64,000 nucleotides of DNA from Planctomycetota bacterium (lineage in GTDB: Bacteria; Planctomycetota; B15-G4; JADJEK01), in assembly GCA_016213895.1 (NCBI GenBank), contig JACQZJ010000028.1, positions 1,653 to 65,652 on the forward strand, written 5' to 3'. Positions 12,812 to 58,831 of this stretch are shown piece by piece. The notes under the pieces are model-generated. The model had not been told where the DNA came from. It saw only the letters and a list, made by a program, of their open reading frames with translations, and did not search any database. Each line of letters begins with the position of its first letter. The first letter of the stretch is position 1. Both the position numbers and the translations under genes were made by a program.

Positions 12812-13560
12812 CGAAGTCGAGCAGCTCTTGAAGAACCTGCACCTGTCGCGGATCGTCCAGGTCCTCGACGACGAGTTGGCCGCGGCCCGAGGAAAGGATC
12901 CTGGCCACGAGGAGTTCCTCCTGCGCCTCCTGCGCGCGCAGTGGCACGACCGCCAGGAGAAGGCCCTGGAGTGGCGCATCAAGCAGGCGCGCCTGCCTTT
13001 CCCCTGGACCATCGAGTCGTTTCCCTTCCAGCGCCAGACGGGTGTGAGCCGGCGACAGATCCGGAACTTCGCGACCCTGGAGTTCGTGCCACGGGCCGAG
13101 AACATCGTCTTCGTGGGCAAGACCGGCGTGGGCAAGACCGGGCTGGCGGTCGGGCTGTTGCTCAAGGCGCTGCAGAACGGCTACCGGGCGCTCTTCATCA
13201 AGGCCCAGGAGTTGTTCGACGAAATGTACGCCTCCCTCGCCGATCGCTCGACGCCGCGCTACATCCGTCGCCTCAGCCGCACCGACGCCCTGGCGGTCGA
13301 TGACCTCGGGCTGCGGCCGCTGGTGGGCGACGAGCCGCTGGACCTCTACGAGGTCATCCGCCAGCGCTACGAGCGCGGCTCGATGATCGTGACCTCGAAC
13401 CGGGCGATCGCGGAATGGCCGCCGCTCTTCCTGGACGCCCTGGTGGCGACCGCCGCCATGGACCGCCTGCTGCACGACGCGCAGGTGATCGTGATGGAAG
13501 GCGACTCCCACCGCAACCCGCCGACGACGAAGAGGCGGAAGGGGTGGAAGATGGTGGTGC
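12804..13560 (+). CDS. istB: IS21 helper ATPase IstB (3' end undefined; the frame reads through to 14612 without a stop)
   Basis: Walker A (VGKTGVGKTGLAVGL), Walker B (LAVDDLG) and a C-terminal LLHDAQVIVMEGDSHR motif. The native protein should end about 15 aa later; the long open tail is GC-driven read-through. Confidence 0.7.
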
Positions 13561-13989
13561 GGACGTCCGCCACGCGCGCGGAGCGACGCGGTGAGTCTCG
13601 TGTGCTGGTCACCGCCGTGGAGAGGCCGTGGACAGCTGACGCGGCGTGGAAAACTCCTTGCCTGTTTGAACGGCGGAGTTTCCCACACCGCTACCTGCCC
13701 ACGGCCTCCCCACGGCTCGTCCCCCGAAGAGCCCACGCCGGGCCGTCCGCTGCCGCTCTTTCCGCCCCCGATCCCTGGCCCGTTTCGCAAGAACCATGCC
13801 GCCAGCCGCCGTGGACCAGCCTGGCTGACCCGACCAGCGATTCTGCGCGGCGCCCACACCGCCTTCGTGCACAACGCCGAGCACGCCATCCGAACGTGCT
13901 CGACAAGTGGACTTGCTTGGCCGAACCAAGGGTGGACTTTGCAGGCCGGTCCTTGACAGAAACGGCCCTCTTCATCCGAGTAGACCACA

Positions 13990-16124
13990 GGCAGGACTCG
14001 CCCGGCGAGGACCGCGACGGACGCTTGGCCAGCGTTTCGCGTGAGCAGGATGCGCGCGTCGGGGACGAGACGTCCGTCGCGCCGGAGGACAACGCCGGCG
14101 ACCAGCGGCGGGGGCATCGCGATGTCTCCAAGAGCGATCGCGCCGCTTGCCGGGGCGTCGGCGATGCGCACGGAGCGGTCCGCGGCGCCAGCGGCGGCCG
14201 CCAGCGGGCGCAGCGTCAGCGTTGTGCCAACGGGCCGCTGCCGGTACTCCGCGACCTCGAAGGAGAAACGCCCGCAGTCATCGGTCTGGATCCACGAGCG
14301 CCTCACGCTGGAGTTCGCGTCCGCCTGCAGGTCCGCTTGGAAGATCTCGTGCGGGACGGGCGCGCCGTCTTCATGGACGAGCCGGCCCGACACGCTGACG
14401 AATCGGCCGTCCACGCTCAGATCGATGCGGGCAACGTCACCGGCCGATGTCGGCCCGTTCCCGGTCGTGCTGACGGGCTCCTGGTCCCAGCGGAGTGCTG
14501 CGCGCGCCTCCAGTGTGACTGCGATGCCGACGGGCCAGAAGTCGACTTTGCCGCTCACGGTCTTCCGCGTGAGCATCGTCAGGGCCGGGCTGAGTGCATC
14601 GTCTGCCGATGAGAGGGTGATCACTGCGCCATCGGCCAGCGGTGCCCCCGCGCATCCGGTGGTTTGGACGATGACCCGGCCTGTCGGAGGGCAGATCAGG
14701 GTCACCGGTTCACTGGGCCAGAGGCGCACGTCACCCGGGACCGTCGTCGCCACGGGATGAGCAAGCGGGAAGGCCAGGGCGACGGAGAGGACTGCTTGGG
14801 AATGCGGCGGAGGAGGATCGACCTTGGGCACAAGGCGCGCGAGCCCGCGCGCGTGGTCGGTTCGTGCGATCGCCAGGAATCTGGGTGTCTTCGTCCCGGC
14901 GCTCGGCGTCGTGCAGAGGAGCGCGACTGGAACATCGCCGACAGGCCGCGAGCAGGCGTCGACGACCCTCACGGCCAGGGAGGCCAGCGGCTCCAAAGAG
15001 ACCTCGACAGGGTCTTGTTGGCCGCTGCGAATGAGCGTCTTCCCAAACAGAGACTGACCGACGCGAGCGATGATCGTCGCTCCCATCGGGCCTGGCCGTG
15101 GGACGCAGGCGTTGCCATCCGCACCGGCCACGTCGCGGTACGTGAGCGAGCCGATCGCATCGAGCCAGTCGGCCAGGCTCAGTCGCTCCAGGTCGTGAAG
15201 CGCTTCGGCAAACGCCGCATCGAGGCAGCATCGGCCCTGCTCGATGAACAGAACCTCCGCTCCTGCCACGGGCTCCCCCGTGTCGGCTCTGACCACCCGC
15301 ACGGCCAGAGCAGGGGCGGATGCCGCCGCATCCGTCGGCGCTGATGCCAGTGGCACCCGGCTGGATTCTACCGGGGGGGGATCGGCGGAGACGGACTGCT
15401 TTCGGACAGGCGCTCTCCCAGCCCCTGCGGGCTGCGTGCCGGGAGATGGGATGTCGTCTCGGAACACCCAGATCGAGGATCCGGTCAGGATCGCCGCGAG
15501 CAGCACGGCAAGGGTCAGCAGTTTGCTCGCCACCAGCAGTCCACCCATCATCGATGCGTTCGCCTGCGGAGATCCCGATGCCAGCGGGAGCATCGCGGAA
15601 AGCCAGGCGGAACGGTCCCCGCCGTGTCTGCGGTCCAGTTGCTCTCTGAGCTTCCCGAGCGCGCGCGTCAGCCGGCTGTTCACTGTGGCCGGACTTGTTC
15701 CCTCGCGGCGCGCGATTTCCCTCGGGGCAAGCCCCTCGAAGAAGCGCCCCAGCACGGTGCCCCGGTAGGGCTCCTCGAGAGAGATCACTGCCGCTGCGAG
15801 CAGGCGCTGCTGCTCGAGGCGCTCCACGATCTCTTGCGCGGAGAGTCCGGGCTCAGGTCGCGCACCCTGCCTCTCGCGCCTCAGCCGGCGGGCGCTGCTG
15901 CGATGCTGTGCTGCCGCTACGTTCTTCACGATCCCGGCGAACCAGCCGCGGAAGGATCCTGTCGGCCGCGCGTCCGAAGTCAGAGCCGTGGAGTACGCAT
16001 CCTGGACGACGTCTTCGGCAAGATGAGAGTCCCCGACCAGCCGGCGGGCCAGGGCGATGACCCAGCCGCCATCTGCCGCAAGAACTTCGATTTCCCGGAA
16101 CGTCCGATCGGACATGGCATCCAT
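13990..16124 (-). CDS. ECF sigma factor fused to a TM helix and a large extracytoplasmic beta-sandwich domain (sigma/anti-sigma-like fusion); 3' end uncertain and possibly truncated by the IS21 remnant
   Basis: N-terminal sigma-70 region 2 (DVVQDAYSTALTSDARPTGSFRGWFAGIVKN) and region 4 (LEEPYRGTVLGRFFEGLAPREIARREGTSPATVNSRLTRA). A TM helix (LLTLAVLLAAILTGSSIWVF) follows, then AVRVVRADTGEPV-type repeats. The sequence becomes non-protein-like past roughly residue 700. Confidence 0.6.
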
Positions 16125-23766: not shown

Positions 23767-24364
23767 ATGCGCCGGGCTGCGACGTGGTTCGTGGAGGCGG
23801 TTCTTCTTCTTGCCGCCGCCGCGTGCGGCAGCCGGCCGGAGCCAGAGGCCGGGATGGCGAGTAGCGCAGCGGGCGTCTCCAGGACGGTCAGGATCGACGG
23901 CGCCGAGATCCACTGCCTGGGTCGACCTGCCTGGTTTCGGCGCGTCCGGACGGGTGTCGCTCGAGCCGGACGCCTTTCTCGCCGCCCTCCTCGACGCGCT
24001 CGAACTACGCCGGCCGGTGCTCGTGTCGCCGTCCCTGAGCGGCCGCTTCAGCCTGCCGTTCGCCGCCCGCAGCCCGGGCCAGCTCGCGGGCTTCGTCCCA
24101 ATCGCGCCGGCCGGCGTGGAGCACTGCCGCGAGGAGCTGGCTGGCGCGCACGTCGAGACCCTGGTGATCTGGGGAAGGAACGACCGCACGTTTCCCGTCG
24201 CCGGGGCGAGCGACCTGGCCGGGCTCATGCCGTCCGCGAGCATCGCGGTGATCGAGGACGCGGGCCATGCCTGCTACCTGGATCAGTCCGAGCGCTTCCA
24301 CGAGCTGCTGCTCGCGTTTCTCGCGCGCGCCGCCCCTACCGGTACGACTCCAGCTCGGCGTTGA
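23767..24364 (+). pseudogene. Alpha/beta-hydrolase lipoprotein, disrupted by an internal deletion and frameshift
   Basis: The N-terminus (lipobox LLLAAAACGS, then RIDGAEIHCLG) is in one frame. The remainder (DLPGFGASG...VIWGRNDRTF...IEDAGHACYLD) is in another frame. About 45 aa including the HG oxyanion-hole block are missing. Confidence 0.5.
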
Positions 24365-25364
24365 TCCTCATGCCGGCGCGCTCCGGCAGCGTGTCCCACA
24401 GCTCGTCCTGGATCTCCGCGAGGCGCGGCGATCCGGCGTGGTAGCGCAAGGACGCGGCCTGGCCGGGCACGGCGGTCAAGTGCCAGGCGAGGTGGTCGAC
24501 GCCGAGAGAGCGCGCGAGGCGCCGCGCTTCCTCCATCCCCTCGCCCGAGTCGTTCCACTCGAACAGGATGTAGCGCCAGATCAGCCACGGGCGCTCGCGA
24601 CCCTGCTCCTTCTTCATGGCCGCCAGGCGCCGCATGGCCTCGAGGACCCGCTCCAGGCGGCCTCCGCGCCGGTATTTCTCGTAGGTCTCCTGCCGCGCTC
24701 CGTCGACCGAGAAGATCAGGCAGTCGATGCCGCTGTTGAGGACCGCCTGGCGGCGCTCTTCGGTGTGGAAGAAGTGGCCGTTCGTGCTGGAGAGGATCAG
24801 GCAGCCAGGGTTCTTCTCCCGGCAGCAGCGCACCATCTCGTTCGCGGAGCGGTGCATGTAGTTCTCGCCGCCGAGGTGGAACTCCATGTACCCGAGGTCC
24901 GGGGAGAGCGCGTCGATGATCCTGGCGTAGGTGGCGAAGGGCAGGGAGAGGGAGGAGCGGCTGCCCTCGATTCCCGCGCGGTTGCAGCCGGGGCAGGAGA
25001 GGTTGCAGGCGGCGTGCGACTCGATGAAGAGGATGCGCGGCCGCGGCACGCCCGACTCGAAGTCCGGCGGCGGCGGCGGCCCGGCCGTGCGGTTGGGGCA
25101 GCCCCGGCAGATCGGCACCTGGTCGATGTCCGTGGCGATCGCGCGGCGCAGGGCGCGATAGGCCGGCCCGTTCCAGACCTCGTCGAAGCCCTGCCGGCCG
25201 AGGTCGCCGAGCGGGTTCCTCTTCTCCGCGTCCACGCAGGCGCAGACTGCGGTCCCGTCCGAGAGCACGGCGGTCTGGCGCCACGGCCGCGTGCAGTAGG
25301 GCCGGCTGGAGTCGGCCCGCAGCCACGTGGCGATCTCCGGGACGTGTTGTTCCTCGCGGTTCAT
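24336..25364 (-). CDS. Radical SAM enzyme with an N-terminal SPASM-like Cys-rich domain (circularly permuted arrangement)
   Basis: The rSAM core motif CNLSCPGC lies at residues ~113-120 of the protein counted from the MNREEQ start. It is preceded by a SPASM-like block (YCTRPW...DGTAVCAC...GDLGRQGFDEVWNG...ICRGCP). The gene may start 34 codons earlier, at 25466. Confidence 0.75.
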   Translation of the reverse strand: MNREEQHVPEIATWLRADSSRPYCTRPWRQTAVLSDGTAVCACVDAEKRNPLGDLGRQGFDEVWNGPAYRALRRAIATDIDQVPICRGCPNRTAGPPPPPDFESGVPRPRILFIESHAACNLSCPGCNRAGIEGSRSSLSLPFATYARIIDALSPDLGYMEFHLGGENYMHRSANEMVRCCREKNPGCLILSSTNGHFFHTEERRQAVLNSGIDCLIFSVDGARQETYEKYRRGGRLERVLEAMRRLAAMKKEQGRERPWLIWRYILFEWNDSGEGMEEARRLARSLGVDHLAWHLTAVPGQAASLRYHAGSPRLAEIQDELWDTLPERAGMRINAELESYR

Positions 25365-25497
25365 GGGCGGCCTGCCTGGCGCAGGGCGGCGGCGTTTGGC
25401 TCTCGGGGCGCTCTTGCACCATAGCCCGGCCTGGCCTACAACCTCGTCTTCATTCCGGCTCTGCAAGCGAGGAGGCGGCGGCGTGGTTCAGGGCGGG

Positions 25498-27123
25498 ATG
25501 CGGGCGCTCCTCGTGGCCGCCGTCCTGGCGCTGTCCCTGGCGCTGAACTGCGCGGGCATCGGCTTTGGCCAGCCCTGCCACTACGACCAGTCGGTGGACG
25601 CCATCCACCCGGCGCTCTCCCTGGACGCGCTCGAGCACCTCTGCGGCGGGAGCCGGATCACGGAGCTGAAGTACCCGCGCACGCACTTCCTGGCCCTCGG
25701 CCTGGTGCAGCGCGCCTACCTGCTGCTGCGCCACGGCCCGGAAGAGGCCGCGCGGCGGCAGGGCGAGCTGATGGCCGCGTTCGCGGCCGCGCCCGCGCTC
25801 TCCGGCGTGGAGGCGCGCGCCTCCTTCCGTCCCTTCGCCGGCACCATCGGCGAGCTGATCGTGGTGGGGCGCGTGCTCTCGGCTCTCTGCGGCTGCGGCG
25901 CCGTGCTCGCCCTGTTCCTGCTGGCGCGCGGCCTGTTCGGTTTCGTCGCGGGAGCGATCGCCGCCTTTCTCGCGGCGGTGAGCCATCCGCTGGTCTTCTA
26001 TTCGCACACCCTGAACGTCGAGACTCCCTACCTGTGCTGCGCGCTCTTCGCGCTCGCCAGCGCCGTGCGCGCGATCACGACGGGCGCGGCGCGCTGGATC
26101 TTCCTGGCCGTGCTGCTCGCGGCCCTCTCCGGTGCCATCAAGGACCAGGCGTTCGGCCTGTTCATCCTGGCGGCGCCGCTCTTCCTCTGGCTGCTGCTGC
26201 GGCCCGGTTCGTTGCGCCCCGGCGCGGCGCGTCCCTTCCCCCTGCTCGCCGTGTGTCTCGCCGTGCTCGCCGCGGCCGCCTTCTACCTCGCGCTGCTCGG
26301 CCTGCCCGGGGACGTCGAGGGATTCAAGCGGCACTTCGCGCACATCTTCGGCGCGGGCGTGGCGCCCTTTCGCGAGGCCTCGAACACGCTTCTCGGCCAC
26401 TTCGAGCTGCTGCGCTTGACCTTCCTGCACCTGCGAGACAGCCTGGGCGCGCCGCTCCTTCTCGCGGCCGCCGCTGGCGCGGCGTGGATGGCCGTGCGCG
26501 AAGGGCGCAAGGCCTTGGTGATCCTGCTGCCGATTGCCTCCTACTACCTCTCCTTCATCGCGCTCATCGGCTACGTGTACCTGCGCTTCACCCTGCCGAT
26601 CCTGCTGCTCGCGCTCGTCGCCGCCGCCTACCTGTGCACGGCGCTGCTGCGCGCGCCCTACGTGCGCGTCGCGGCCGCGGCCGGCCTGCTTCTCTTGCTC
26701 GGCAACCGGATGGTCCTGGCCGTGGATCTCGACCGCATGCTGCTCGCCGAGCCCAGGACCGAGGCGAGCGCTTTTCTGGAGGAAGTCCTGCCGGAGGGCG
26801 CGCGCGTCGCGGCCGCGATCGATCTGCCCATGCACAACATCGACTTCCCGGCGCGCGCGCAGGTCGAGTTCATCGACCTGCGGCCGCAAGCCGAGCGCGC
26901 GCTGCCCTGGGAGCCCGACTACGTCGTCGTGTCTCTCTTCCCGCCCACGCGCGGCATCGCCATGCCGGCGCCCGAGCCGCCCGAGATCCACGCGGAAGCC
27001 ACGCTCCTCGGCCTGCGCTTCGAGCTGGAGGAGTCGTTCACGCCTGCCATGAACCACCCGATCCAGCTCGGCGCGGCCTTCCAGCCCGTGATACTGGTCT
27101 ATCGCCGCGCCACGGGACCGTAG
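25498..27123 (+). CDS. GT-C fold membrane glycosyltransferase (ArnT / PMT, GT39/GT83-like)
   Basis: GGAGG RBS 23 bp upstream of the ATG. About 12 predicted TM helices with a periplasmic C-terminal domain, an arrangement typical of undecaprenyl/dolichyl-phosphate-sugar-dependent transferases. Confidence 0.7.
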   Translation: MRALLVAAVLALSLALNCAGIGFGQPCHYDQSVDAIHPALSLDALEHLCGGSRITELKYPRTHFLALGLVQRAYLLLRHGPEEAARRQGELMAAFAAAPALSGVEARASFRPFAGTIGELIVVGRVLSALCGCGAVLALFLLARGLFGFVAGAIAAFLAAVSHPLVFYSHTLNVETPYLCCALFALASAVRAITTGAARWIFLAVLLAALSGAIKDQAFGLFILAAPLFLWLLLRPGSLRPGAARPFPLLAVCLAVLAAAAFYLALLGLPGDVEGFKRHFAHIFGAGVAPFREASNTLLGHFELLRLTFLHLRDSLGAPLLLAAAAGAAWMAVREGRKALVILLPIASYYLSFIALIGYVYLRFTLPILLLALVAAAYLCTALLRAPYVRVAAAAGLLLLLGNRMVLAVDLDRMLLAEPRTEASAFLEEVLPEGARVAAAIDLPMHNIDFPARAQVEFIDLRPQAERALPWEPDYVVVSLFPPTRGIAMPAPEPPEIHAEATLLGLRFELEESFTPAMNHPIQLGAAFQPVILVYRRATGP

Positions 27124-27137
27124 TTTCGGACTCCCGG

Positions 27138-27983
27138 CTACTCGTCCTTCTTCCCCTCTTCGTCGCCGCCGAGCAGACCGCCGAGCCGGTCCTTCACGCC
27201 CTCGACCGCGCCCTTCACCTCCTCGCCAACGGCCCCGATCCGGCCGCCCACGTTCTTGAGGAACTTCGCGGCGTTCCTCGCCACCTCGCCGTCGAGGATG
27301 CCCTGCAGGTCAGGCGGCGCCAGGCCGCTCTTGGTCACGGCCGCCAGGATCGTGCCCAGGATCTCCTCGAGAAGCTGCGGCAGGGTGACGTCCCGCGAGG
27401 CGCTCGCCTCCTCGCCCGAGCCGCCGATGTCCGTCAGCTCGATCGTGGGCAGGCTGATGGTCTGTTCGGTCTTCAGGAGGAGCGACTGGGCGAGGCGCAC
27501 CTTGGGCGAGGTGATGGTCACCCGGCCGATCCTGAGCTTCTTGGAGGACGCCCCCTCTTCGTCCGCCGCGGGCTTTGCTTCTGCCTCGCCGCCGCCGGTG
27601 CGGGACTTCAGGTGGTCCATGAGCGCCCCGAAGTTGCTCCCGCCCGTGGAGACCTCGAGCGTGATCAGGGGCTCCGCGATGTCGATGTACTCGATCTCGA
27701 TCGTGTCGCTCAGGAGCGAGCTGACGGCGGTCTTGACGTCGATCTTGCCGACCTCGAGCGCGCTGTCCGCCTTGAAGCCCTCGGGGTTGCGGATGGCGAG
27801 CTTCTCCATCTGCACCTGCCCGCGGAGCAGCGACAGGGAGGCGGAGGACAGCTCCGTCTGGGAGCCGAGCGCCCAGGTGCCGCCTTTCACCACTCCCTTC
27901 TGCAGGATGCCTCCGGCCAGCCAGGAGACCGCGAAGGGGAGAAGGAGGATCACGATGACGACGACGATGATCAGCTTCTTCAT
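27138..27983 (-). CDS. Membrane-anchored periplasmic protein, AsmA-like/unknown
   Basis: The N-terminal anchor (MKKLIIVVVIVILLLPFAV) is encoded with noticeably lower GC. The rest is Gly/Glu-rich and acidic. Family assignment is weak. Confidence 0.55.
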   Translation of the reverse strand: MKKLIIVVVIVILLLPFAVSWLAGGILQKGVVKGGTWALGSQTELSSASLSLLRGQVQMEKLAIRNPEGFKADSALEVGKIDVKTAVSSLLSDTIEIEYIDIAEPLITLEVSTGGSNFGALMDHLKSRTGGGEAEAKPAADEEGASSKKLRIGRVTITSPKVRLAQSLLLKTEQTISLPTIELTDIGGSGEEASASRDVTLPQLLEEILGTILAAVTKSGLAPPDLQGILDGEVARNAAKFLKNVGGRIGAVGEEVKGAVEGVKDRLGGLLGGDEEGKKDE

Positions 27984-28041
27984 TTCGGTTTCTCCTGCGC
28001 CCGAGGCGCGAGCGAGACGATACCCGCCGCGGCCGCCGCCG

Positions 28042-29643
28042 TCACCGCGAAGCGCAGATCGCGAGGCGCGGATCGCCCCCTGGTCCGAGCACGCGGTGCG
28101 ATCCCGATCGCAGCCGCCGGCTGCCGAACCAGATCAGGGGCTCGGTCTCGCGGGCCAGCTCGTCCCAGGACTCCGCTTCCTCCACGGGCGCGAGGAAGTA
28201 GACCCCTCGTTGGTCGGAGCGCGCCGCCCGGAGCACGTCCTCTGGCCGGCCGACCAGCTTGAACGCGCGCACGTCGTAGTCCTGGAGCGGCCGGCAGTCC
28301 ATCTCCAGCTCCTCCGGCACGAAGACCGTGGAGCCGGGCGCGGCGTGCGCTCGGATCCAGTCGCTGGCGAGGTTGCGGGAGTCGGGAGACAGGTCATAGG
28401 CGCGCGCCAGCGCCGGCCAGGACAGGCCGAAGGCGCAGGCGCAGAGCAGGAGGATGGTGCAGCAGGCCGCCGCCCGGCGCGCGGGGGCGCGCGCCGGCCA
28501 ACGCCGCTCGAGCAGGCCGGCCGCGAAGCGCGCGACGAACACGAGTCCGACGGCGGCGAACAGGGCGCAGAAGGGGAACATGCTCACGACGTTGCGGATG
28601 AAGTGCACCTTCTGAGCGCTCATGTAGAGCCCGAGGACCAGCGGATAGGACAGGAGGATCGCCGCCCTTCGCCAGTCGACGAAGAAGGAGCGCGCGATGC
28701 CGATCAGCGCCAGGACGAGCACGACCGGGCCGAAGTTGGCCCGCAGGCTGTCCAGGTAGAACATGACCTGCGCCAGGCCCGACTCGGAAGTGAAGTCGGC
28801 GTGGCCGCGCGCGTAGTGGCGGATCTCCAGTCCGACGTCGTTCAGGAAGGCGGACAAGTCGAAGAGGCAGGGCGTGGTGGCGAGAAAGACCACGGCCGTC
28901 GTGCCGAGGAAGAGCGCGCCGCGCAGCATGAAGCGCCGCTCGCGCAGCACGAGGTTGAGGAGGAACGGCACGACGATCGGCCAGAGGTTGTACTTGCTGC
29001 CGATGGTCAGCGCGCACAGCACGCCGGGAACGAGGCAGCGCTCGGCGGGGCTTTCCGAGTCCGTGCGCCGGAACAGGTAGAGAACCGCGAGCAGGGCGAA
29101 GAAGCACCCGAACATGTCCACGTTCAGGTACTCCCAGGAGTAACCGAGGTACGTGAACGAGGCCGAGAGCAGGAGCGGCGCGAGCACGAGGACCAGCGCC
29201 GAGCCCGTCAGGCGCCAGCCGATGATCGCGGAAAAGACCATGGCCAGGACCGAGAGCAGCGCGAACAGCAGGCGCGCCGGCAGGACGATGCTCGAGTGCT
29301 CGTAGTACGGGAAGGTGAGGCAGCCGATCTGGTCGACGGTCTCCAGCTCCTGCCGCGACGAGGCGAAGAGGAAGCCCGCGACCAGACTCGCCGCCGTGAC
29401 GTAGATCGGCGGCGAGGGGTAGCGGTACCAGTGGGGCAGGTAGTCGCCGCTCGTGATGATCTGCTGCCCCAGGCCCGTGAGGTGGCGCTCGTCCTCGTGC
29501 AGGGGATAGGGGAGCGAGCCGCGGATCAGGTCGACGCGCACCCAGAACGCGGCAACGATGATCAAGAGGAGCGCCAGCACGGCGCAGCGCAACTCCACGC
29601 GGCGCGCGCCGCCTTCGGTCTCCATGCCCTCGGCCCGCAACAT
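28042..29643 (-). CDS. GT-C fold membrane glycosyltransferase (PMT_2 / ArnT-like), second copy
   Basis: Polytopic N-terminal region followed by a soluble C-terminal domain. It is divergent from, but architecturally like, the first copy. A DE-like motif lies near the first loop (HEDERH). Confidence 0.7.
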   Translation of the reverse strand: MLRAEGMETEGGARRVELRCAVLALLLIIVAAFWVRVDLIRGSLPYPLHEDERHLTGLGQQIITSGDYLPHWYRYPSPPIYVTAASLVAGFLFASSRQELETVDQIGCLTFPYYEHSSIVLPARLLFALLSVLAMVFSAIIGWRLTGSALVLVLAPLLLSASFTYLGYSWEYLNVDMFGCFFALLAVLYLFRRTDSESPAERCLVPGVLCALTIGSKYNLWPIVVPFLLNLVLRERRFMLRGALFLGTTAVVFLATTPCLFDLSAFLNDVGLEIRHYARGHADFTSESGLAQVMFYLDSLRANFGPVVLVLALIGIARSFFVDWRRAAILLSYPLVLGLYMSAQKVHFIRNVVSMFPFCALFAAVGLVFVARFAAGLLERRWPARAPARRAAACCTILLLCACAFGLSWPALARAYDLSPDSRNLASDWIRAHAAPGSTVFVPEELEMDCRPLQDYDVRAFKLVGRPEDVLRAARSDQRGVYFLAPVEEAESWDELARETEPLIWFGSRRLRSGSHRVLGPGGDPRLAICASR

Positions 29644-29755: not shown

Positions 29756-30937
29756 TCAGCCTCCCTTGTCGCGCCAGGGGGCATACCCTTCTATGACGAA
29801 GGGCGACAGGTCCTCGAACCCTCCGACCTCATCGTAGAAGGGCGTGACGATCGCTTCCTTGATCGCCTCGACCTCGGCGCGCGCTGGATCGTACGTGATG
29901 CGCACCGGCGCGTGGCCCGGACCCGGCCAGGTCTCGACCTTGAGGTAGCCTTCTACCTCGAAGATGTCCTCGCGGAACAGGAAGCTGGCCAGGCGGCTGG
30001 ACGAGCCGCGGCACGTCACGCCCTCGATGCGCAGGTCGAGCGTCTCGGTCACAGCCGGGGGCTTACCGCGCGCCACGAAGAAGGAGGGCAGCGGGAACAG
30101 GTAGGCGGCGCTCACCACGGACGCCGTGATCGCGAGCAGCACGGCGACCGCGGCCGCCTGCGGCCAGGCGCGGTGCGTGCGCCCCGGCGGGCCCCAGGTG
30201 AGCGTGCTCTTGCGGCGCGTGGGGCAGGAGGAGACGCAGGACAGGCAGCTGGTGCAGCGCGCGGCGGTCACCTCCTGCTTGCGCGAGACAGGGATGTTCA
30301 TCGGGCAGACGGTCTCGCAGTGGCCGCAGTCCGAGCAGGTCTCGAGATCGCGCCGCACGCGCGCCAGCCCGAAGCGCGACAGGGGATTGAAGAGCGCCGC
30401 CAGCGGGCACAGCCAGCGGCAGAAGGGGACGGTGAGGAAGAGCGCGCCGGCGACGATGGCGCCGGAGACGACGTAGGCCCAGAAGGTGATGTCCTCGCCG
30501 TGCCGGCTGAGCAGGGCGTAGCACGGGTCCGCGGTGCGGAACAGCAGCTCGCCGGCCTTCCACGTCACCCAGAGGATGAGCGCGAGCACGCCGTACTTCA
30601 AGAGCGCCAGGACCGATTCCAGGGCCTGCGGCACGCGCGCCGGCTTGATGCCGGCGCGCCGAGCCAGCTTGCCGAGCCACTCGGTGATCGTGCCGATCGG
30701 GCAGATGTAGCTGCAGAAGGCGCGCCGCAAGAGCAGGGCCATGAGCAGCACGCCGCCGAGCGCGAAGAAGTTGGAGACCGCCAGCGAGCAGGGCATGTTC
30801 CCTTCGTTGGCGTAGGTGTAGATCGCCTCCGCGCCGCCGAAGGGGCACCAGCGCTCGGCGTTGCCGCCCACGACGAACACGCCGATCAACGTCAGGGCCA
30901 GGAAGGCGGCCTGGATGGCTCGCCGCGTCCTCTGCAT
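29756..30937 (-). CDS. Membrane polyferredoxin (NapH / MauN / CcoG-like, two 4Fe-4S motifs) with a C-terminal HMA-like domain
   Basis: TM helices flank a CxxCxxCxxxCP motif (CSDCGHCETVCP) and a second cluster motif (CTSCLSCVSSCP). The C-terminal region (RIEGVTCRGSSSRLASF...) resembles a heavy-metal-associated fold with a single Cys. The start was re-assigned to the in-frame MQRTRR at 30937. Confidence 0.75.
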   Translation of the reverse strand: MQRTRRAIQAAFLALTLIGVFVVGGNAERWCPFGGAEAIYTYANEGNMPCSLAVSNFFALGGVLLMALLLRRAFCSYICPIGTITEWLGKLARRAGIKPARVPQALESVLALLKYGVLALILWVTWKAGELLFRTADPCYALLSRHGEDITFWAYVVSGAIVAGALFLTVPFCRWLCPLAALFNPLSRFGLARVRRDLETCSDCGHCETVCPMNIPVSRKQEVTAARCTSCLSCVSSCPTRRKSTLTWGPPGRTHRAWPQAAAVAVLLAITASVVSAAYLFPLPSFFVARGKPPAVTETLDLRIEGVTCRGSSSRLASFLFREDIFEVEGYLKVETWPGPGHAPVRITYDPARAEVEAIKEAIVTPFYDEVGGFEDLSPFVIEGYAPWRDKGG

Positions 30938-31031
30938 GGCACGCGCCTCGTTCGCTGCTGTAGGGGCCGGAAACAGGAAAGGGCGGTTCGACCCGCCCCT
31001 TCCCGCGCTGAAACGCCGCTGGCTGCTGCGC

Positions 31032-31931
31032 CTAGCCGTCGGCGTCCTTCTTGTCGTCGGCGCAGCCGTCGTCCTTTTCGCTCGAGCAGCCGCCCTTGCT
31101 GGGGCAGGAGCCGCAGTCCGCTCCGCTGCTGCAGGACGACTCCGCGACCTTGGACTCGGTGGCAAGGACCGTCTCGAAGTTGGCGTTCGCCGGCAGGGCC
31201 TTGAACTCCGGGAGGTTCACGACGAACTCCCGGAAAGCGGTGATGCCGCGCGGGGAAGTGGACTCGAAGGCCGAGGTCAGGCGGACCATGGCGTCGTCCA
31301 CCTTGCCGCACAGCACCTCGAGGCGGGCCACGTCGCACAGAAGGCGCGGGCTCGCGGGCTCGGGCAGGACGACCTGCTCGAGGATGGCGCCGGCCTCGTC
31401 GAGCTTCTTCTGCCGGCCGAGACCGATGCCCAGGAGGACCTTGGCCTGAGGCGTGAGGTCGGCCTGCGGCTGGCTGGCGAGCAGCTCCACCACCTCGGCG
31501 TCCTCTTCCATGTTCAGCAGGGCGTCCGCCAGGAGGGTCGCGCTGCCGACCGACTGCTTCTTCTCATGCATCTGGCGGGCGAGGGCCAGCAGGTCAGCGT
31601 AGAGGCGGTTGCTGTAGTAGAAGTTCTTGAGCGTCGCCGCCGTCTTGGTCCACTGCTCGGGATCCTGCTCCGCGGCGAGGCCCTCGCGCAGCGACACGAC
31701 CTTGCGCAGGACCATGTACTTCTGGCGGTACTCGGTCTTCTCCTCGTCGAGCTGGCTGGCAGCGGCGTAGGCGTCGAGCGCGCCGCTGAAATCCCCCCGG
31801 TGCAGGAGATCGGTCCCCTTGGCGAACTCGAGGGCGGCCTTGTCCGCGTCCGGTCCATCGTAAGCCGCCGCCCCGCCAGCGGCGAGCAGGCCGAACATCA
31901 CGCTGATCAACATCATCCGTGGGAGCTTCAT
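31032..31931 (-). CDS. Secreted TPR-like helical protein with a Cys-rich acidic C-terminal tail
   Basis: Signal peptide (MKLPRMMLISVMFGLLAAGGAAA). Helical repeats. Tail sequence SSCSSGADCGSCPSKGGCSSEKDDGCADDKKDADG. Confidence 0.65.
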   Translation of the reverse strand: MKLPRMMLISVMFGLLAAGGAAAYDGPDADKAALEFAKGTDLLHRGDFSGALDAYAAASQLDEEKTEYRQKYMVLRKVVSLREGLAAEQDPEQWTKTAATLKNFYYSNRLYADLLALARQMHEKKQSVGSATLLADALLNMEEDAEVVELLASQPQADLTPQAKVLLGIGLGRQKKLDEAGAILEQVVLPEPASPRLLCDVARLEVLCGKVDDAMVRLTSAFESTSPRGITAFREFVVNLPEFKALPANANFETVLATESKVAESSCSSGADCGSCPSKGGCSSEKDDGCADDKKDADG

Positions 31932-32480: not shown

Positions 32481-33812
32481 TCATCCGCCGAAGAGGCGCT
32501 GGCGCGGGATCTCGTCCTCGCCGACCTCGGCCACCTGCGCCCCGAGGTCCTTCTGCGCGCCCGAGCCGGAGAGCACGGCGAGCGCGACCTCGAACGTCTT
32601 CTTCACCGCGTCGTCGGCTTCGGCGTCGCGCGCGGCCTCGAGCGCCGCCACGAAGCGCGGTTCGCGCGAGATGGCTGCGGCGCAGGCCGCCGCCCTCCTG
32701 ACGCCGCCGGACGCGTCGCCGAGCGCCTGCGAGAGCAGGTCCTCGATCTCGTCGTCCATCTGCAGGGAGCCCGCGGCGATGAGCGCGTTCTTGCGCAGCA
32801 GGACCTCCTTGGGCCCGTCGTCGCGGGCTGCCTTGAGAACCGTCTTCCTGGCCTTGTCGTCCTCGGCGCCGAGCGCTCCCGCGGCCCGCAGCCACTCCTT
32901 GGCCACGGCCGCCTCCTTCTCCTTCTTGTAGGCCTCGAGGACCTCCTTCAGCGCCTTCGGGCTGCCGAGCTGCTCCAGGGCCACGGCCGCCTCGGCGCGG
33001 ATCTTCGGCTCGCCGTCCTTGGCGAGCGGCAGGATCACCTCGTAGTAGGAGGGCGGCGAGGCCTCGCCGACCGCGCGGATGCACTCCGCGAGCGTCTGGC
33101 TGCCGTCGCGCCGCATCCAGCGCGAGCCGAACTGGATTTTGGCGAAGGCGATGGCCTCGGGCTCGTCGGCGGTGATGAGGCGCAGGAAGAGGAGGTGCAC
33201 ATTGTCGCGCGAGGTGGTCTTGGCCTCCTCGAGCAGCTGGAGCGCCTGCTCGCGGTTCAGGCTGCCGGCATCGCCGGCGCCTGGGTCGATCACGCCCTTG
33301 AGGATGAGGCGCTTGGGCGCGCGGCCGCCCCTGGTCTTGAACTCGGGATCGACCGAGCCGATCGCCATGAGGAAGCACCAGGTCAGCTCGCTCTTGGTGA
33401 CGGCATAGGGCACCGAGAGGATCACGGCGCCGCTCGCGTCGAGGAAGACGTGCTGCGGCGCGATGACCCAGCCGTTCGCCGCTTCCTTCACCACGCGCTT
33501 GCGCACCTGCTTGTCGACCGCCTGGTGCACCGCGCAGGAAACGCCGCCGAAGCGTGGGCACTCGCGCTCGCCTCCGGCGTGCGTCTCCTTCGAGGCCAGG
33601 AGGTTCGCCGTCAGGCCGGCCAGCTTGACGATGTCCTTGTCCTTGTAGACCGTGTTCGCGAGCGTGTCGTTGGCGCGCTCGCCGTCCATGTTGACGGCGA
33701 CGAAGACGACCTTGTTCTCGGCGCGGGCCTTCTCCAGGGCGGCGTCGAGCGACTCCTGCCACGCGATGCCGGCGAGCGCGGCCAGGAGGAAGGGGATGAG
33801 CAAGGCGGGCAT
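32481..33812 (-). CDS. Secreted thioredoxin-fold (redox-inactive, no CxxC) plus HEAT-repeat protein
   Basis: Signal peptide MPALLIPFLLAALAG. A Thioredoxin_7-like N-terminus (WQESLDAALEKARAENKVVFVAVNMDG) has the CxxC position replaced. The C-terminus carries HEAT-like repeats. Confidence 0.65.
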   Translation of the reverse strand: MPALLIPFLLAALAGIAWQESLDAALEKARAENKVVFVAVNMDGERANDTLANTVYKDKDIVKLAGLTANLLASKETHAGGERECPRFGGVSCAVHQAVDKQVRKRVVKEAANGWVIAPQHVFLDASGAVILSVPYAVTKSELTWCFLMAIGSVDPEFKTRGGRAPKRLILKGVIDPGAGDAGSLNREQALQLLEEAKTTSRDNVHLLFLRLITADEPEAIAFAKIQFGSRWMRRDGSQTLAECIRAVGEASPPSYYEVILPLAKDGEPKIRAEAAVALEQLGSPKALKEVLEAYKKEKEAAVAKEWLRAAGALGAEDDKARKTVLKAARDDGPKEVLLRKNALIAAGSLQMDDEIEDLLSQALGDASGGVRRAAACAAAISREPRFVAALEAARDAEADDAVKKTFEVALAVLSGSGAQKDLGAQVAEVGEDEIPRQRLFGG

Positions 33813-35461: not shown

Positions 35462-35900
35462 TTGCTGTTGCGTAGCGCGCCCGGTGGCACGGATCCGTCG
35501 TTCTCGTCGCACATACGGAGGCACGCGATCGGCGGCGGGATCCGGCAGCCTCTCGGTCCGAAGGCCATCAACAAGTGAAGCCCACGGTGGACGAACACCG
35601 TGGGCTTCTCGCATTCCCGCGCTGCCGTCGTGCTTCACCGGCCTTCGGCAGCGCCAGCAACCGTGGATGCATCCTACATCAAGCCGAGGCCGGCCGCACG
35701 TCCGCGAGCGATCGCTCGCTGCCGGCCGTTCGTGGTCGCGAGCCACGATCCGGGGCCATCCGGCCGCCTCGAACCGGATCTTCCCGACCGCTGCCCCCAG
35801 GGGATCGAAGAGGCGGACGGACGCGCCTGCTCGGTCAGGATTTCGTTCTTCCGCGGGCGCAAGGCCGGACCGGGGTATCAGGCCTCAACTCGCGTGGCCG

Positions 35901-36241
35901 ATGATCGGCAACGGCATCTACCGCTTGACCCAGGCATTCCCGGCGGACGGGCGCTTCGGCGTGACGTCGCAACTGCGCAGGGCGGCGACCTCGGTGCCGA
36001 CCAACATCGCGGAGGGATCGCGGCGGCAACGGCCGGCGGACTTCGCCCGGTTCTTGAACATCGCGGAAGGTTCCCTGGCCGAGGTTGAATACCTGCTGCT
36101 GCTGAGTCGCGACCTGGGCTACGTGGCGGGAAAACAGTGGAAGCCCAGCTTGGCGAGACGGGCGAGATCTTCGCGATGCTGCATGCGCTGCGCAGGAAGG
36201 TGGAGGACGGTAGCGGGCCGTCCGGAACTTCCGACTACTGA
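35901..36241 (+). pseudogene. Four-helix-bundle protein (TIGR02436; the '23S rRNA intervening-sequence protein' family), N-terminally truncated and frameshifted
   Basis: The core block YRLTQAFPADGRFGVTSQLRRAATSVPTNIAEGSRRQRPADFARFLNIAEGSLAEVEYLLLLSRDLGYV is in one frame. The C-terminus ETGEIFAMLHALRRKVEDG is in the -1 frame. The shift sits at an A4 run (GGGAAAACAG). Confidence 0.6.
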
Positions 36242-36325
36242 CTTCGAACTTCCGACTCGCGGCGGCGCCGGCCCGCTACAATCGAACAAGACGAGAGGAT
36301 CTCACACGAACTGCGGCGGCCGGCT

Positions 36326-37093
36326 TTGGTTGCGGCGCCGCCGCGATGTGATGGTCGTCAGCGGGTCGTGAGGATGGTCATGGTATGCGCGGATGCCCTG
36401 AGGGGGAAACCGCGAGAACGTCAGCCACGTGGTTGGCTGTTTCGTGCCGGGGCAGTGGCCTTCGGCGCGGTGGTGGTGGTCTTCGCGTGGAGGGTTGTTT
36501 ATGAGCTGGAGGAGCTTCGGTCTGCAGCGGAGGCGTTGTGTACCGAGAGTGCGCGCGCGCACTCGGAGGTCAGGGAGGGACTGAGCCGGGTGGAGCGAGC
36601 GGTCGATAGTCTGATGGGGGCGGAGGTTGTTCTGCCGAATAGGGTATTGGGCAAGGATGATGATGATCCTGCTGCTCGCGGGGACAGCGTGGCGTGGTCG
36701 AAGGATCACGACGAGATTGGCGGGTCGTCGTCGGCTGGCGCTGAGCGAGCCGCTGTGGACCCTGCAGAGGACGTCGAGAGGTCTTGTGCGTGGACTGACT
36801 TCGTGCCGCGAGAGCTGGCCAGTGTGCTGGTGGCGCATGGGCTCACGCCCTTCGACTCGGGCGTGGACCGCGCCTTGTCGGAGGCTGCTCGGCAGTGGCG
36901 AGACGTGGTGCAGGCCGAGGAGGAGGCGCGCGCAGCGTGGAACCAGCGCTACGGCAATGTCGGTGCAAGTGATCCTCTCTGGTCCGAGAGACAAGAAGCG
37001 CAGATGAACATGGAGTTAGTTGGGCGGCGGGAGAGGAAGAGAATCTTGGATGCGTTTGATCTGAGTGTAGGGCAGGTTGCAGCGCGGGAGTGA
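36326..37093 (+). CDS. Hypothetical membrane-anchored coiled-coil protein with atypical codon usage
   Basis: G-first RNY periodicity, but third positions are G/T-rich, unlike the C-rich third positions elsewhere. Anchor sequence AVAFGAVVVVFAWRVVY. The start may be at 36374. Confidence 0.45.
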   Translation: MVAAPPRCDGRQRVVRMVMVCADALRGKPRERQPRGWLFRAGAVAFGAVVVVFAWRVVYELEELRSAAEALCTESARAHSEVREGLSRVERAVDSLMGAEVVLPNRVLGKDDDDPAARGDSVAWSKDHDEIGGSSSAGAERAAVDPAEDVERSCAWTDFVPRELASVLVAHGLTPFDSGVDRALSEAARQWRDVVQAEEEARAAWNQRYGNVGASDPLWSERQEAQMNMELVGRRERKRILDAFDLSVGQVAARE

Positions 37094-48363: not shown

Positions 48364-49620
48364 TCACAACGTGCCCCAGGTCTCGGACTCGAGGATGAGC
48401 AACGCGTTCTTCTCCCACCAGGAGTTCCAGTAGCTCGCGCCGTCCTCCACGCGCGGCTTTTCGTCCCGCGTCGCGCGCGCCGTGAAGAAGCGCTCGACGC
48501 GGTCGAGCGCGCCGCCCTGCTTCTCGCCGTCTCGGTCCACGGCCACGAGCCGGTCCGCGAGCGCGGCGTCGCTCTCCAGCTCGCGGCGCATTTCCTCGAG
48601 CCGGGAGAGGGCGAGCTGGACCACCTGCGGGTCCCTGTCCTCGAGCAGCACGAGCAGGCGCGGCACGATCTCGTACCGCGGCCCGAAGGTCTCGAGGCTC
48701 ACCCTGCCCTCGGCGCGCGTGACGACGACTGCGGAGGGAACGTCTGCCTCCGGGGCGGGGCTCGCCGCGGCGACAGAGACCGGAGCGGCGGCCTCGGGCA
48801 GGGCCCCGGGCAAAACCGGAGCGGGCGCCGGCTCCTCGGCCGCGGCGGGCGCGGCCGCGACCGCTTCCGCGCGTTCCCTGAGCGCGCCGGCCAGCGACGA
48901 GCCGAAGAGGTCGATGGAGCGGCTCACCTCGCGCGCCGCCTGCCGCACGGCCTCGCTGTCCACCTCGAGGCTCAGGTCGAGGAGCGGGCCGCGGCGCACG
49001 GTCCGCACCCTCTCGACCACCTTCTCCACGACCTCGGGCGGCGGCGGCGCCTCGGGCCGAGCCTCGATGCGCAGCGCGCCCGCGTCGCCGAGGACGAGCG
49101 AGACCCCGCCTCCCTGGCGCACGCTCAGCACGTCCCCGGCTCTCGGCTCGAAGACGTTCGCGGGATCGAGCGGCCGCGCGCGCCCGTCTCTGAGCAGCGT
49201 GCCTTCCCCGGCGACGAGCTGCAGGCCGACCGGCTGCGGGACAAAGCGCACGGCCGGCGGCGGCGCCACCGCCGTCTCGCCCTGCGTCTCCGGGAGGTTC
49301 GCCATGACCAGCACGGCCGCGGCCGCGCCGAGCGCCGCCGCCAGGACGTGCGTGCCCGCGCGCCGCACCCGCGCCGCACCGGCCCAGCGCTGCTCGCCCG
49401 CGGTTTCGCCGACCGCGGCCATGATCGACGCCACGTGCTCGCGCGGCGTCGGACCGACCTCGAGCGCGCGCAGCCTGGCCGTGGCCGCGGCAAAGGACGC
49501 GTACTCCTGGCGGCAGGCCGCGCACTGCTCGAAATGCGCGCGCACGGCCTCTTCGAGCGAGCCCGAGAGCCGCGCGTCCAGGATGTCCGAGAACAGGGGG
49601 AGGATCGCCTCACACTTCAT
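48364..49620 (-). CDS. Anti-sigma factor (zinc-finger ZAS-type N-terminus, single TM helix, large extracytoplasmic domain)
   Basis: N-terminal HFEQCAACRQEY (HxxxCxxC) motif. TM helix VLAAALGAAAAVLVMANL. The start overlaps the sigma-factor stop by 11 nt. Confidence 0.7.
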   Translation of the reverse strand: MKCEAILPLFSDILDARLSGSLEEAVRAHFEQCAACRQEYASFAAATARLRALEVGPTPREHVASIMAAVGETAGEQRWAGAARVRRAGTHVLAAALGAAAAVLVMANLPETQGETAVAPPPAVRFVPQPVGLQLVAGEGTLLRDGRARPLDPANVFEPRAGDVLSVRQGGGVSLVLGDAGALRIEARPEAPPPPEVVEKVVERVRTVRRGPLLDLSLEVDSEAVRQAAREVSRSIDLFGSSLAGALRERAEAVAAAPAAAEEPAPAPVLPGALPEAAAPVSVAAASPAPEADVPSAVVVTRAEGRVSLETFGPRYEIVPRLLVLLEDRDPQVVQLALSRLEEMRRELESDAALADRLVAVDRDGEKQGGALDRVERFFTARATRDEKPRVEDGASYWNSWWEKNALLILESETWGTL

Positions 49621-58818: not shown

Positions 58819-58831
58819 GGACTCCTCCACC

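Follow-up and report, generated by a model that had tools for sequence, protein, structure and literature searches.

A NapH-like polyferredoxin with a single-cysteine HMA-like domain and its secreted TPR partner in uncultured Planctomycetota

Two adjacent genes on the minus strand of the window, the whole 64-kb stretch of DNA analysed, encode a membrane-bound polyferredoxin and a secreted TPR protein, which together look like an uncharacterised device exporting electrons to a cysteine- or metal-based site. The polyferredoxin is a member of the NapH/NosR/CcoG polyferredoxin superfamily with five transmembrane helices, and is neither CcoG nor NapH proper. With moderate confidence, the pair is read as a NapH-type transmembrane electron module whose output on the periplasmic side is new and based on thiols or a metal. 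An earlier note on this DNA had placed the two genes at 29756–31931 and quoted one peptide from each product. These coordinates are exact, and both peptides are present, IEGVTCRGSSSRLASF comprising aa 304–319 of the polyferredoxin and SSCSSGADCGSCPSKGGCSSEKDDGC aa 265–290 of the TPR protein. The genes are:

29756–30937, minus strand: polyferredoxin gene, 393 aa, ATG at 30937, stop ending at 29756 (MBI4878711.1; NCBI label '4Fe-4S binding protein')
31032–31931, minus strand: gene of the secreted TPR protein, 299 aa, ATG at 31931, stop ending at 31032 (MBI4878712.1, HY812_03505; NCBI label 'hypothetical protein', database entry 100% identical)

In 68 of the 78 species-level loci that could be tested, the TPR gene is located directly upstream of the polyferredoxin gene and on its strand; the other 10 lack an adjacent partner. 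Every other neighbour family occurs in at most 9 of 80 loci, so that no further neighbour of the polyferredoxin is conserved; the pairing can not be attributed to chance. Full-length homologues of the polyferredoxin number 866, and the family is kept in about 240 species-level genomes. The best 80 loci all belong to uncultured Planctomycetota, and the hosts of the two-gene module are Planctomycetota represented by metagenome bins only, mostly labelled Phycisphaerae.

The predominant part of the polyferredoxin displays the NapH-type layout, in which a four-helix core with two CX3CP motifs is followed by two cytoplasmic [4Fe-4S] motifs:

30698–30715, minus strand: first CX3CP motif, C75-S-Y-I-C79-P80, at the cytoplasmic end of TM2, invariant
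30404–30421, minus strand: second CX3CP motif, C173-R-W-L-C177-P178, invariant
30215–30358, minus strand: cytoplasmic 2x[4Fe-4S] ferredoxin domain (Fer4_10, Fer4_7 and Fer4 in Pfam)

Pfam detects Fer4_5 twice together with 4Fe-4S dicluster domains (PF12801 at E=2.6e-15), and weak Fer4_18 matches that are also found on many homologues. The best curated matches are NapH/MauN (77.4 and 77.0 bits for TIGR02163 and NF007013, far below the cut-offs of 213 and 234) and NosR. The NapH/CcoG-like core described in the earlier note is thereby corroborated. Its assignment to CcoG/FixG, however, is not, as TIGR02745 scores 18.7 bits (E=6.6e-4, residues 62–180 only) against a cut-off of 316.7. Counted over 81 species-level sequences, all 16 cysteines of the protein are essentially invariant, with C139 as the single exception. 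Cysteines 201, 204, 207 and 211 and cysteines 228, 231, 234 and 238 form two CxxCxxCxxxC motifs of the ferredoxin domain (8/8 invariant), and eight invariant non-cluster cysteines are distributed over both membrane faces. The CX3CP motif defines the membrane module of NapH, NosR and RdhC (PMC5928378). Proteins with PF12801 form a modular transmembrane electron-transfer apparatus with varied extracytosolic domains, the electron-transfer class of which is set by FMN-binding or ApbE partners (PMC8238504). Such partners are absent here, and the PF12801 core is accompanied by an extracytosolic domain and a partner protein. A Foldseek search of the PDB with the whole model found no significant counterpart of the membrane core, and a profile search of the PDB returned generic ferredoxin domains only, so that no NapH-like structure exists for comparison.

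Outside the core, the features of the polyferredoxin are as follows:

30788–30862, minus strand: outward-facing loop 1, aa 26–50, with the invariant motif E28-R-W-C31-P-F-G-G, and C50
30485–30553, minus strand: outward-facing loop 3, aa 129–151, with D137-P-C139-Y and R145-H146-G-E-D, net charge −2.0
30089–30169, minus strand: fifth transmembrane helix, aa 257–283 (hydropathy; AF2 helix at 260–280)
29768–30088, minus strand: predicted periplasmic HMA-like domain, aa 284–390
30005–30013, minus strand: C309-R310-G311, at the first-Cys position of the HMA motif MxCxxC, second Cys absent

Around the five hydrophobic segments, net charges alternate (+2.9/−2.1/+4.0/−2.0/+5.2/−5.7), a distribution which predicts a cytoplasmic Fe-S domain and an HMA-like domain beyond the cell membrane. 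Due to its net charge of +5.2 the ferredoxin domain is predicted to be cytoplasmic, and loop 1, with −2.1, is predicted to face outward. C31 and C50 of loop 1 are found in 81/81 sequences, C139 and H146 of loop 3 in 80/81 and 79/81, respectively. According to the AF2 secondary structure, all four outward cysteines are situated at or near helix N-termini, which would be a typical site for reactive or liganding cysteines. No conserved twin-arginine motif precedes the fifth helix, alignment A1 being variable at the expected RR site, and a Tat-dependent helix as in the NapH-NapG fusion was therefore rejected. The lack of a Tat motif on this helix and on the partner argues against a pre-assembled periplasmic Fe-S cluster.

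The C-terminal domain displays the β-α-β-β-α-β ferredoxin-like fold and is a degenerate HMA domain of HMA ancestry in which the first metal-site cysteine is kept. The earlier note had proposed such a single-Cys domain, to be given up if the domain modelled as the Ig-like domain of CcoG. The proposal holds, since the domain models as an HMA fold and has no Pfam match to the Ig-like FixG_C. C309 and R310 are present in 81/81 sequences and are followed by Gly in 78 and His in three of them. The resulting motif, C-R-G-[SNRTKA], aligns with GMTCAAC but does not match the two-Cys pattern GMxCxxC, whereas the aromatic residue that HMA sites typically have in loop 5 is kept as Y367. The homology is remote, as a family profile reaches the HMA domains of CopA (E=3.3e-5) and Pfam HMA (PF00403) stays below threshold on the domain of the window (13.2 bits, E=0.12; threshold 24.8); weak PF00403 matches occur in 8 of 28 family members (best 8.5e-4). 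In Foldseek against the PDB, CsoZ was the only match, and it covers the C-terminal domain. In contrast to CopZ/Atx1, CsoZ, MerP and the N-terminal domains of P1B-ATPases, which carry a two-Cys C-x-x-C, the domain has a one-Cys C-R-G-x with an invariant Arg beside the Cys, additional strands at both termini and conserved patches of its own, R-D-D and E-x-W-P-G-P-G. It also differs in occurring fused to the polyferredoxin only: all 55 phmmer matches among 1.8 billion representatives belong to its own family or fragments thereof, and no other architecture is found among them. One Cys alone cannot chelate Cu(I). A rhodanese or PTP-type C-X5-R loop (CRGSSSR) was considered and rejected, because the family does not conserve R315 and has the Cys at the N-terminus of an HMA fold.

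The partner protein contributes the following features:

31863–31931, minus strand: Sec-type signal peptide, aa 1–23, ending in AAA before YDG, read from the sequence, without twin arginine
31086–31160, minus strand: conserved C-terminal Cys4 peptide of 25 residues, T258-E-S-K-V-A-E-S-S-C267-S-S-G-A-D-C273-G-S-C276-P277-S-K-G-G-C282
31035–31085, minus strand: variable extension, aa 283–299, SSEKDDGCADDKKDADG, acidic here, Lys/Ser-rich in other lineages

Orthologues share the n-h-c pattern and the AxA site of the signal peptide, in agreement with the secretion assumed in the earlier note, and the signal places the partner on the same side of the membrane as the HMA-like domain; both are predicted to be periplasmic. 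The protein contains TPR repeats; TPR_CcmH_CycH matches weakly in a single one of 36 partners. Of the acidic, CxxC-rich tail that had been described as a plausible metal-binding element, the Cys4 core is conserved, whereas the acidic part is lineage-specific. For each of the four cysteines, conservation is 90% or more in partners that share 31–84% identity, so that the claim is not overturned by their loss in orthologues. The peptide forms near-invariant columns in alignment A3 and contains 11 invariant positions in alignment A5; the invariant non-Cys residues among them imply specific docking. Across the fetched loci, the strict form of the motif occurs in 65 partner ORFs and in none of the other ORFs in about 1 Mb, and within the window the TPR protein is its only real-frame match. 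A tail-only profile (A5, 41 columns) returned 95 candidates and two short fragments from a collection of 5.8 billion proteins. About 12 orthologous tails carry extra Cys/His in low-complexity extensions, such as CPH...CPH or repeated CENS/CDKS, which may hint at metal binding.

Genes for cbb3 oxidase or NosZ assembly, which the earlier note had suggested looking for, are missing from the 64-kb window and from the 80 related loci: no cco (ccoNOQP/ccoHIS), nos or cop genes were found in the window or among the conserved neighbours. Nap genes are absent nearby, and a NapG/MauM partner in a nap/mau operon context was not found. Likewise, no gene for a metal transporter, a cuproenzyme or a thiol-redox partner is conserved near the pair; a CDF transporter follows the polyferredoxin gene in one locus only. 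The flanking genes (Trx-like/HEAT, two PMT_2, AsmA-like, radical SAM/SPASM) were rejected as parts of the system, being common to the closest relative, L007, only. An ABC-2 permease beside some paralogues was rejected as a Nos-like link, as the gene encodes an NF041647 ABC-permease/CPBP-protease fusion and not NosY. An Rfam scan of the upstream region for riboswitches or other regulatory RNA found nothing.

The outer module differs between polyferredoxin subfamilies, with FMN in NosR and PceC, a ferredoxin in NapG and an Ig-like domain in CcoG. NapH resembles the polyferredoxin in its four-helix core, the two CX3CP motifs at the cytoplasmic face, the two [4Fe-4S] motifs and a periplasmic partner. 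However, the fifth helix and the HMA-like domain are extra here, the nap context is lacking, and the partner is a Sec-exported TPR/Cys4 protein in place of the Tat-exported four-cluster ferredoxin NapG. Moreover, the three invariant outward-facing cysteines seen here are not known from E. coli NapH. In the dual Sec/Tat polyferredoxin of the delta-proteobacterium MLMS-1, a NapH-NapG fusion, one polypeptide joins a NapH core to a fifth TMD and then to a redox domain in the periplasm (PMC5449189); core, fifth helix and predicted periplasmic domain follow in this order here too. The fifth TMD of that protein carries a twin arginine and exports a folded four-cluster ferredoxin, whereas neither a conserved RR nor a pre-assembled cofactor is seen here. 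CcmH/CcmI of System I cytochrome c maturation, like the TPR partner, combine a periplasmic TPR with a redox-active Cys motif. This is an analogy only, since the matches are to generic TPR without specific homology, and the cysteines form a C-terminal Cys4 and not LRCxxC.

From these features we infer electron flow, docking and substrate as follows. Reducing equivalents from a cytoplasmic donor or quinol would be relayed by the Fe-S/CX3CP module as far as Cys309 and the cysteines of the outward-facing loops, where the Cys4 peptide, carried on the flexible C-terminus of the TPR protein, would dock; the degenerate HMA domain would be rigidly attached behind the fifth helix. Either the composite thiol site would then reduce and bind a thiophilic metal ion, with Cu(II) to Cu(I) as the leading candidate, and the TPR protein would take the metal to a client, or the site would hold the cysteines of the partner reduced in a DsbD-like thiol relay. 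It is tentatively proposed that the outer loops, the one-Cys HMA remnant and the docked Cys4 peptide together reduce a metal, likely copper, outside the cytoplasm and load the TPR carrier for periplasmic clients. The earlier note had seen a periplasmic pair for metal reduction and hand-off. The predicted location of both parts agrees with this; the metal itself is less certain, as no copper-specific tie of the pair was found. Copper reduction and hand-off is plausible, metal hand-off and a thiol-disulfide relay being comparably so.

An Fe-S-driven thiol-disulfide relay, functionally analogous to DsbD/CcdA and without a metal substrate, is likewise possible. Electrons would run from the clusters via the CX3CP cysteines and the loop cysteines to Cys309 and on to the Cys4 peptide, which the TPR domain would offer to client proteins, as might be compared with the TPR-plus-Cys proteins CcmH/CcmI in cytochrome c maturation. 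The eight invariant non-cluster cysteines on both membrane faces suit such a route, as do the Sec-type, cofactor-free nature of every extracytoplasmic part, the Arg beside Cys309, which is expected to lower the pKa of the thiol, and the single TPR_CcmH_CycH match. CX3CP motifs are, moreover, considered likelier redox disulfides than cluster ligands (PMC5928378). On the other hand, the carrier domain derives from a metal-binding fold and not from thioredoxin or Ig, and the Cys/His-rich tail extensions resemble metal-binding sequences. With four cysteines and a conserved Pro and Gly, the peptide also differs from the usual CxxC redox motifs, and a thioredoxin-like neighbour is found only in the genus of the window.

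That the polyferredoxin is no more than a NapH-like quinol dehydrogenase, or a ferredoxin protein facing the cytoplasm, appears rather unlikely. Here the HMA-like domain would be a disulfide-tethered structural lid, and the TPR protein would help in assembly or stability or act as adaptor to a periplasmic reductase not linked to the pair. Extracytoplasmic cysteines are often mere structural disulfides, which fits a lid and counts against a reactive site, and when the CX3CP motifs of NapH were mutated, its periplasmic partner NapG was lost from the membrane (PMC5928378). A lid does not, however, account for an invariant C-R-G exactly at the HMA metal-site position, the retained Y367, the placement of the four outward cysteines at or near helix N-termini or the invariant non-Cys residues of the partner peptide. 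Quite improbable is a CcoG/FixG-type cupric reductase for the assembly of cbb3 oxidase (or NosZ) in which an HMA-like domain replaces the Ig-like one. CcoG/FixG/RdxA shares the general plan, in which five TM helices and two CX3CP motifs are combined with two [4Fe-4S] clusters and a C-terminal domain in the periplasm (PMC7558416), and the Fer4_18 matches and the HMA ancestry of the extra domain would fit as well; both proteins point to a possible copper link. Yet the periplasmic domain of CcoG is Ig-like (PMC7558416), and the low TIGR02745 score, the missing FixG_C and the absence of the ccoGHIS/ccoNOQP context in the window and the 80 loci all speak against it. Moreover, the proposed acceptors of Cu(I) from CcoG are cytoplasmic CopZ and P1B-ATPases (PMC7558416) and not, as the earlier note had it, periplasmic chaperones, whereas it is on the outer side that the pair has its novel conserved features. 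Several source MAGs also come from apparently anoxic settings, judged by isolate labels (Zodletone spring, digesters, deep mines).

NapH-like polyferredoxins are a widespread and mechanistically obscure transmembrane electron route, the known subfamilies of which are defined by the module on the outside, and the pair presents a new one: a degenerate metal-binding domain with a docking Cys4 peptide on a TPR carrier. If copper or another thiophilic metal is both reduced and handed off by the pair in the periplasm, a gap would be filled; a review of bacterial copper homeostasis does not mention a dedicated periplasmic cupric reductase (PMC7558416). Should the composite-site copper reading be true, this would be the first case in bacteria of a cupric reductase and chaperone that work together outside the cytoplasm and are powered by Fe-S, and a thiol relay would represent an Fe-S-driven alternative to DsbD. 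Under either reading, the invariant CX3CP motifs and outward-facing cysteines make this a compact two-protein system for probing the role of CX3CP. The three polyferredoxins with C-R-H in place of C-R-G all occur without an adjacent partner.

The two genes are co-directional, separated by a gap of 94 bp, and lie between the following neighbours:

24336–29643, on the downstream side of the pair and close to it: two membrane glycosyltransferases of the ArnT-like PMT_2 type, clustered with an AsmA/DUF748-like protein and a radical SAM/SPASM enzyme
29756–30937, minus strand: gene 1, encoding the polyferredoxin (393 aa; ATG at 30937, stop ending at 29756)
31032–31931, minus strand: gene 2, encoding the TPR/Cys4 partner (299 aa; ATG at 31931, stop ending at 31032)
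32481–33812, minus strand, immediately upstream of the pair: a secreted HEAT-repeat protein whose N-terminus is weakly thioredoxin-like (DUF255)

At a G+C content of about 70% in the window, GC3 supports both ORFs as real genes. Their products are deposited as MBI4878711.1 (labelled '4Fe-4S binding protein' by NCBI) and MBI4878712.1 ('hypothetical protein') from a metagenome-assembled 'Planctomycetes bacterium' with the locus tag prefix HY812_, and both peptides quoted in the earlier note were found in the encoded proteins. Rfam elements were not detected within the window.

The synteny of polyferredoxin and TPR partner is tight and exclusive. Scanning one genome for each GTDB species revealed relatives in 239 species, the best 80 of which are all Planctomycetota MAGs, mostly labelled Phycisphaerae; according to the isolate labels, several source MAGs originate from Zodletone spring, digesters and deep mines. 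Upstream DNA was available for 78 loci, and in 68 of them the TPR/Cys4 gene directly precedes the polyferredoxin gene on the same strand; five independent contexts show this direct adjacency. All-against-all clustering of neighbouring ORFs yielded no other family common to more than 9 of the 80 loci. The genes flanking the pair in the window, including the downstream group, are common to the nearest relative (L007) only, and the thioredoxin-like/HEAT protein is therefore unlikely to belong to the module. The 64-kb window is devoid of cbb3 oxidase genes and of nos, nap and cop genes.

The gene 1 product is a NapH-superfamily transmembrane Fe-S protein. Pfam assigns two Fer4_5 domains (PF12801) and a 2x[4Fe-4S] ferredoxin domain, and the membrane module consists of four helices with two CX3CP motifs (C75x3C79P and C173x3C177P), as found in NapH, NosR and RdhC (PMC5928378). 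It is followed by two CxxCxxCxxxC motifs, an arrangement known from NapH and NosR (PMC5928378). Among curated families, the top matches are NapH/MauN, at 77 bits against cut-offs of 213 and 234, and NosR. Assignment to NapH proper was rejected, since the curated scores fail and the operon context is absent; the same applies to CcoG (18.7 bits; cut-off 316.7), whose Ig-like domain is missing as well. Searches of the PDB gave no solved structure for the membrane core.

Five hydrophobic segments are predicted in the protein, and the net charge of the connecting regions across 121 homologues alternates from +2.9 (N-terminus) to −2.1 (loop 1), +4.0 (loop 2), −2.0 (loop 3), +5.2 (Fe-S domain) and −5.7 (C-terminal domain). 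By the positive-inside rule, this alternation predicts that the Fe-S domain and the CX3CP motifs face the cytoplasm, as in NapH, and that loops 1 and 3 together with the C-terminal domain are located on the periplasmic side. In a NapH-NapG fusion the fifth helix is Tat-dependent (PMC5449189), whereas no twin-arginine is conserved before TM5 in the homologue alignment of the present family. The exported domain is thus predicted to fold after export, with no cofactor inserted beforehand.

All 16 cysteines of the polyferredoxin are invariant or nearly so among 81 species-level sequences. In addition to the eight cluster ligands and the four cysteines of the CX3CP motifs, these include C31 (in E-R-W-C-P-F-G-G) and C50 in outer loop 1, C139 (in D-P-C-Y; 80/81) in outer loop 3, which also carries His146 (79/81), and C309 with the adjoining Arg310 (both 81/81) in the C-terminal domain. 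AF2 secondary structure places each of the four outward cysteines at a helix N-terminus or just before it.

AF2 predicted the full-length protein with confidence (pLDDT 87.3, pTM 0.80) and the isolated C-terminal domain (residues 284–393) with a still higher pLDDT of 93.8. The modelled domain displays a β-α-β-β-α-β topology with additional edge strands, and Foldseek ranked CsoZ, periplasmic MerP and CopA at the top (probability 0.97–0.99), which bears out the earlier proposal of an HMA-like rather than an Ig-like CcoG domain. A family profile retrieved the HMA domains of B. subtilis CopA (E=3.3e-5), with all other metal-ATPase HMA domains further down the list. In this alignment the family cysteine corresponds to the first cysteine of GMTCxxC, and an aromatic residue past helix 2 to the conserved loop-5 Tyr/Phe. 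The motif of the domain is C309-R310-G311-x, the second HMA cysteine being absent from every sequence. Pfam HMA matches the window domain with 13.2 bits (threshold 24.8) and gives weak matches in 8 of 28 family members; of three HMA hallmarks compared, the domain shares the fold but neither the Pfam score nor the two-cysteine motif. Judged from profile and model, the domain is a remote, degenerate HMA homologue. It is confined to this polyferredoxin family (55 matches by phmmer in 1.8 billion representatives). Since the short linker from TM5 adds a β-strand to its sheet in the AF2 model, the domain is probably held near the membrane surface.

The gene 2 protein starts with a Sec-type signal peptide (AAA|Y) lacking a twin arginine, continues with TPR repeats of a generic kind, and is predicted to be periplasmic. 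By far its most conserved part is the C-terminal peptide after the TPR region, a putative docking peptide with the consensus T-x-S-K-V-x-E-S-x-C-S-x-G-x-x-C-x-x-C-P-x4-C. Its residues C267, C273, C276, P277 and C282 reach a conservation of at least 90%, though the partners share only 31–84% identity, and eleven positions are invariant in an alignment of 23 tails. Within the approximately 1 Mb of fetched loci, 65 ORFs carry the strict motif, all of them partners; in the window, gene 2 is its sole real-frame match. Past the fourth cysteine, length (3–40 residues) and composition vary, and about 12 tails carry extra Cys or His (e.g. ...CPH...CPH, repeated CENS/CDKS). Thus, of the CxxC-rich acidic tail described earlier, the cysteines proved conserved among orthologues, but the acidity is limited to the lineage of the window, the tails being Lys/Ser-rich elsewhere. 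One homologue (P0125) ends in an unrelated, Arg-rich stretch of 60 residues in place of the Cys4 peptide found in all others, most likely due to a frameshift in that assembly.

Several loci deviate from the paired arrangement. The partner-less L040 is an 89%-identical paralogue of L056, located about 120 kb away on the same contig (CAXXKI010000013.1) of one genome, and the TPR/Cys4 gene adjoins only the latter copy. L069, L074 and L084 form one subclade in which C-R-H replaces C-R-G; in L084 the R-D-D patch has disappeared too. These are the sole three such sequences and all lack an adjacent partner, a weak sign that residue 311 and the partner may be functionally coupled. In L033, L044, L069 and L074, which represent two divergent subclades without an adjacent TPR partner, the polyferredoxin gene is directly preceded by genes for an ABC ATPase and for a fusion of an ABC permease with a CPBP intramembrane protease (NCBIfam NF041647, 614–640 bits; e.g. 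L069:2874-5934, L044:394-3583). The gene order in L044 is TPR (variant Cys tail), ABC, ABC/CPBP, polyferredoxin, RnfC. These genes may belong to the system as an additional part, or their synteny may be coincidental.

A published description of the polyferredoxin/TPR-Cys4 family was not found in the literature; the family is conserved, clearly delimited and testable. PF12801 proteins have been described as a modular transmembrane electron-transfer apparatus with varied outer modules (PMC8238504), and the HMA-like domain together with the TPR/Cys4 partner is therefore read as a new outer module. Electrons would flow to the outward cysteines, the tail of the partner would dock at C309 and the loops, and the substrate would be either a metal or a disulfide. 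Since both exported parts lack a Tat signal, an Fe-S cluster pre-assembled for the periplasm is unlikely. The cysteines may also be purely structural.

Both substrates appear comparably plausible, and a genomic link of the family to a specific substrate was not found. A thiophilic metal might be reduced and captured, with Cu(II) to Cu(I) as the leading candidate; this would be in line with the HMA ancestry of the C-terminal domain, the Cys/His-rich tail extensions and the analogy with CcoG. The earlier premise that CcoG-type cupric reductases feed periplasmic chaperones is inaccurate, since according to a review (PMC7558416) the Cu(I) from CcoG goes to cytoplasmic CopZ and to P1B-ATPases. An Fe-S-driven thiol-disulfide relay, on the other hand, could account for the eight invariant non-cluster cysteines on both membrane faces, and the CX3CP motifs are thought likelier to be redox disulfides than cluster ligands (PMC5928378). 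The TPR-plus-Cys arrangement of the partner, analogous to that of CcmH/CcmI, would likewise suit such a relay.

Further features were observed elsewhere in the window:

6609–9429, minus strand: two tandem FGE-sulfatase (formylglycine-generating-enzyme-like) paralogues, the first with a weak papain-like N-terminal match
12317–14612, plus strand: an IS21-type element, comprising an ORF with a Mu-transposase C-terminal domain and then an IstB-like ATPase, adjoining a stretch of lower G+C (10–12 kb, 63%)
35484–36371, plus strand: an ORF with a match (E=3e-27) to PF05635, the '23S rRNA-intervening sequence protein' family, where GC3 flagged no gene
48364–50206, minus strand: an ECF sigma factor and a zf-HC2 anti-sigma factor, an ordinary envelope system
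57747–61787, minus strand: an ExbB/ExbD pair and, after it, two large TPR proteins, likewise an ordinary envelope system
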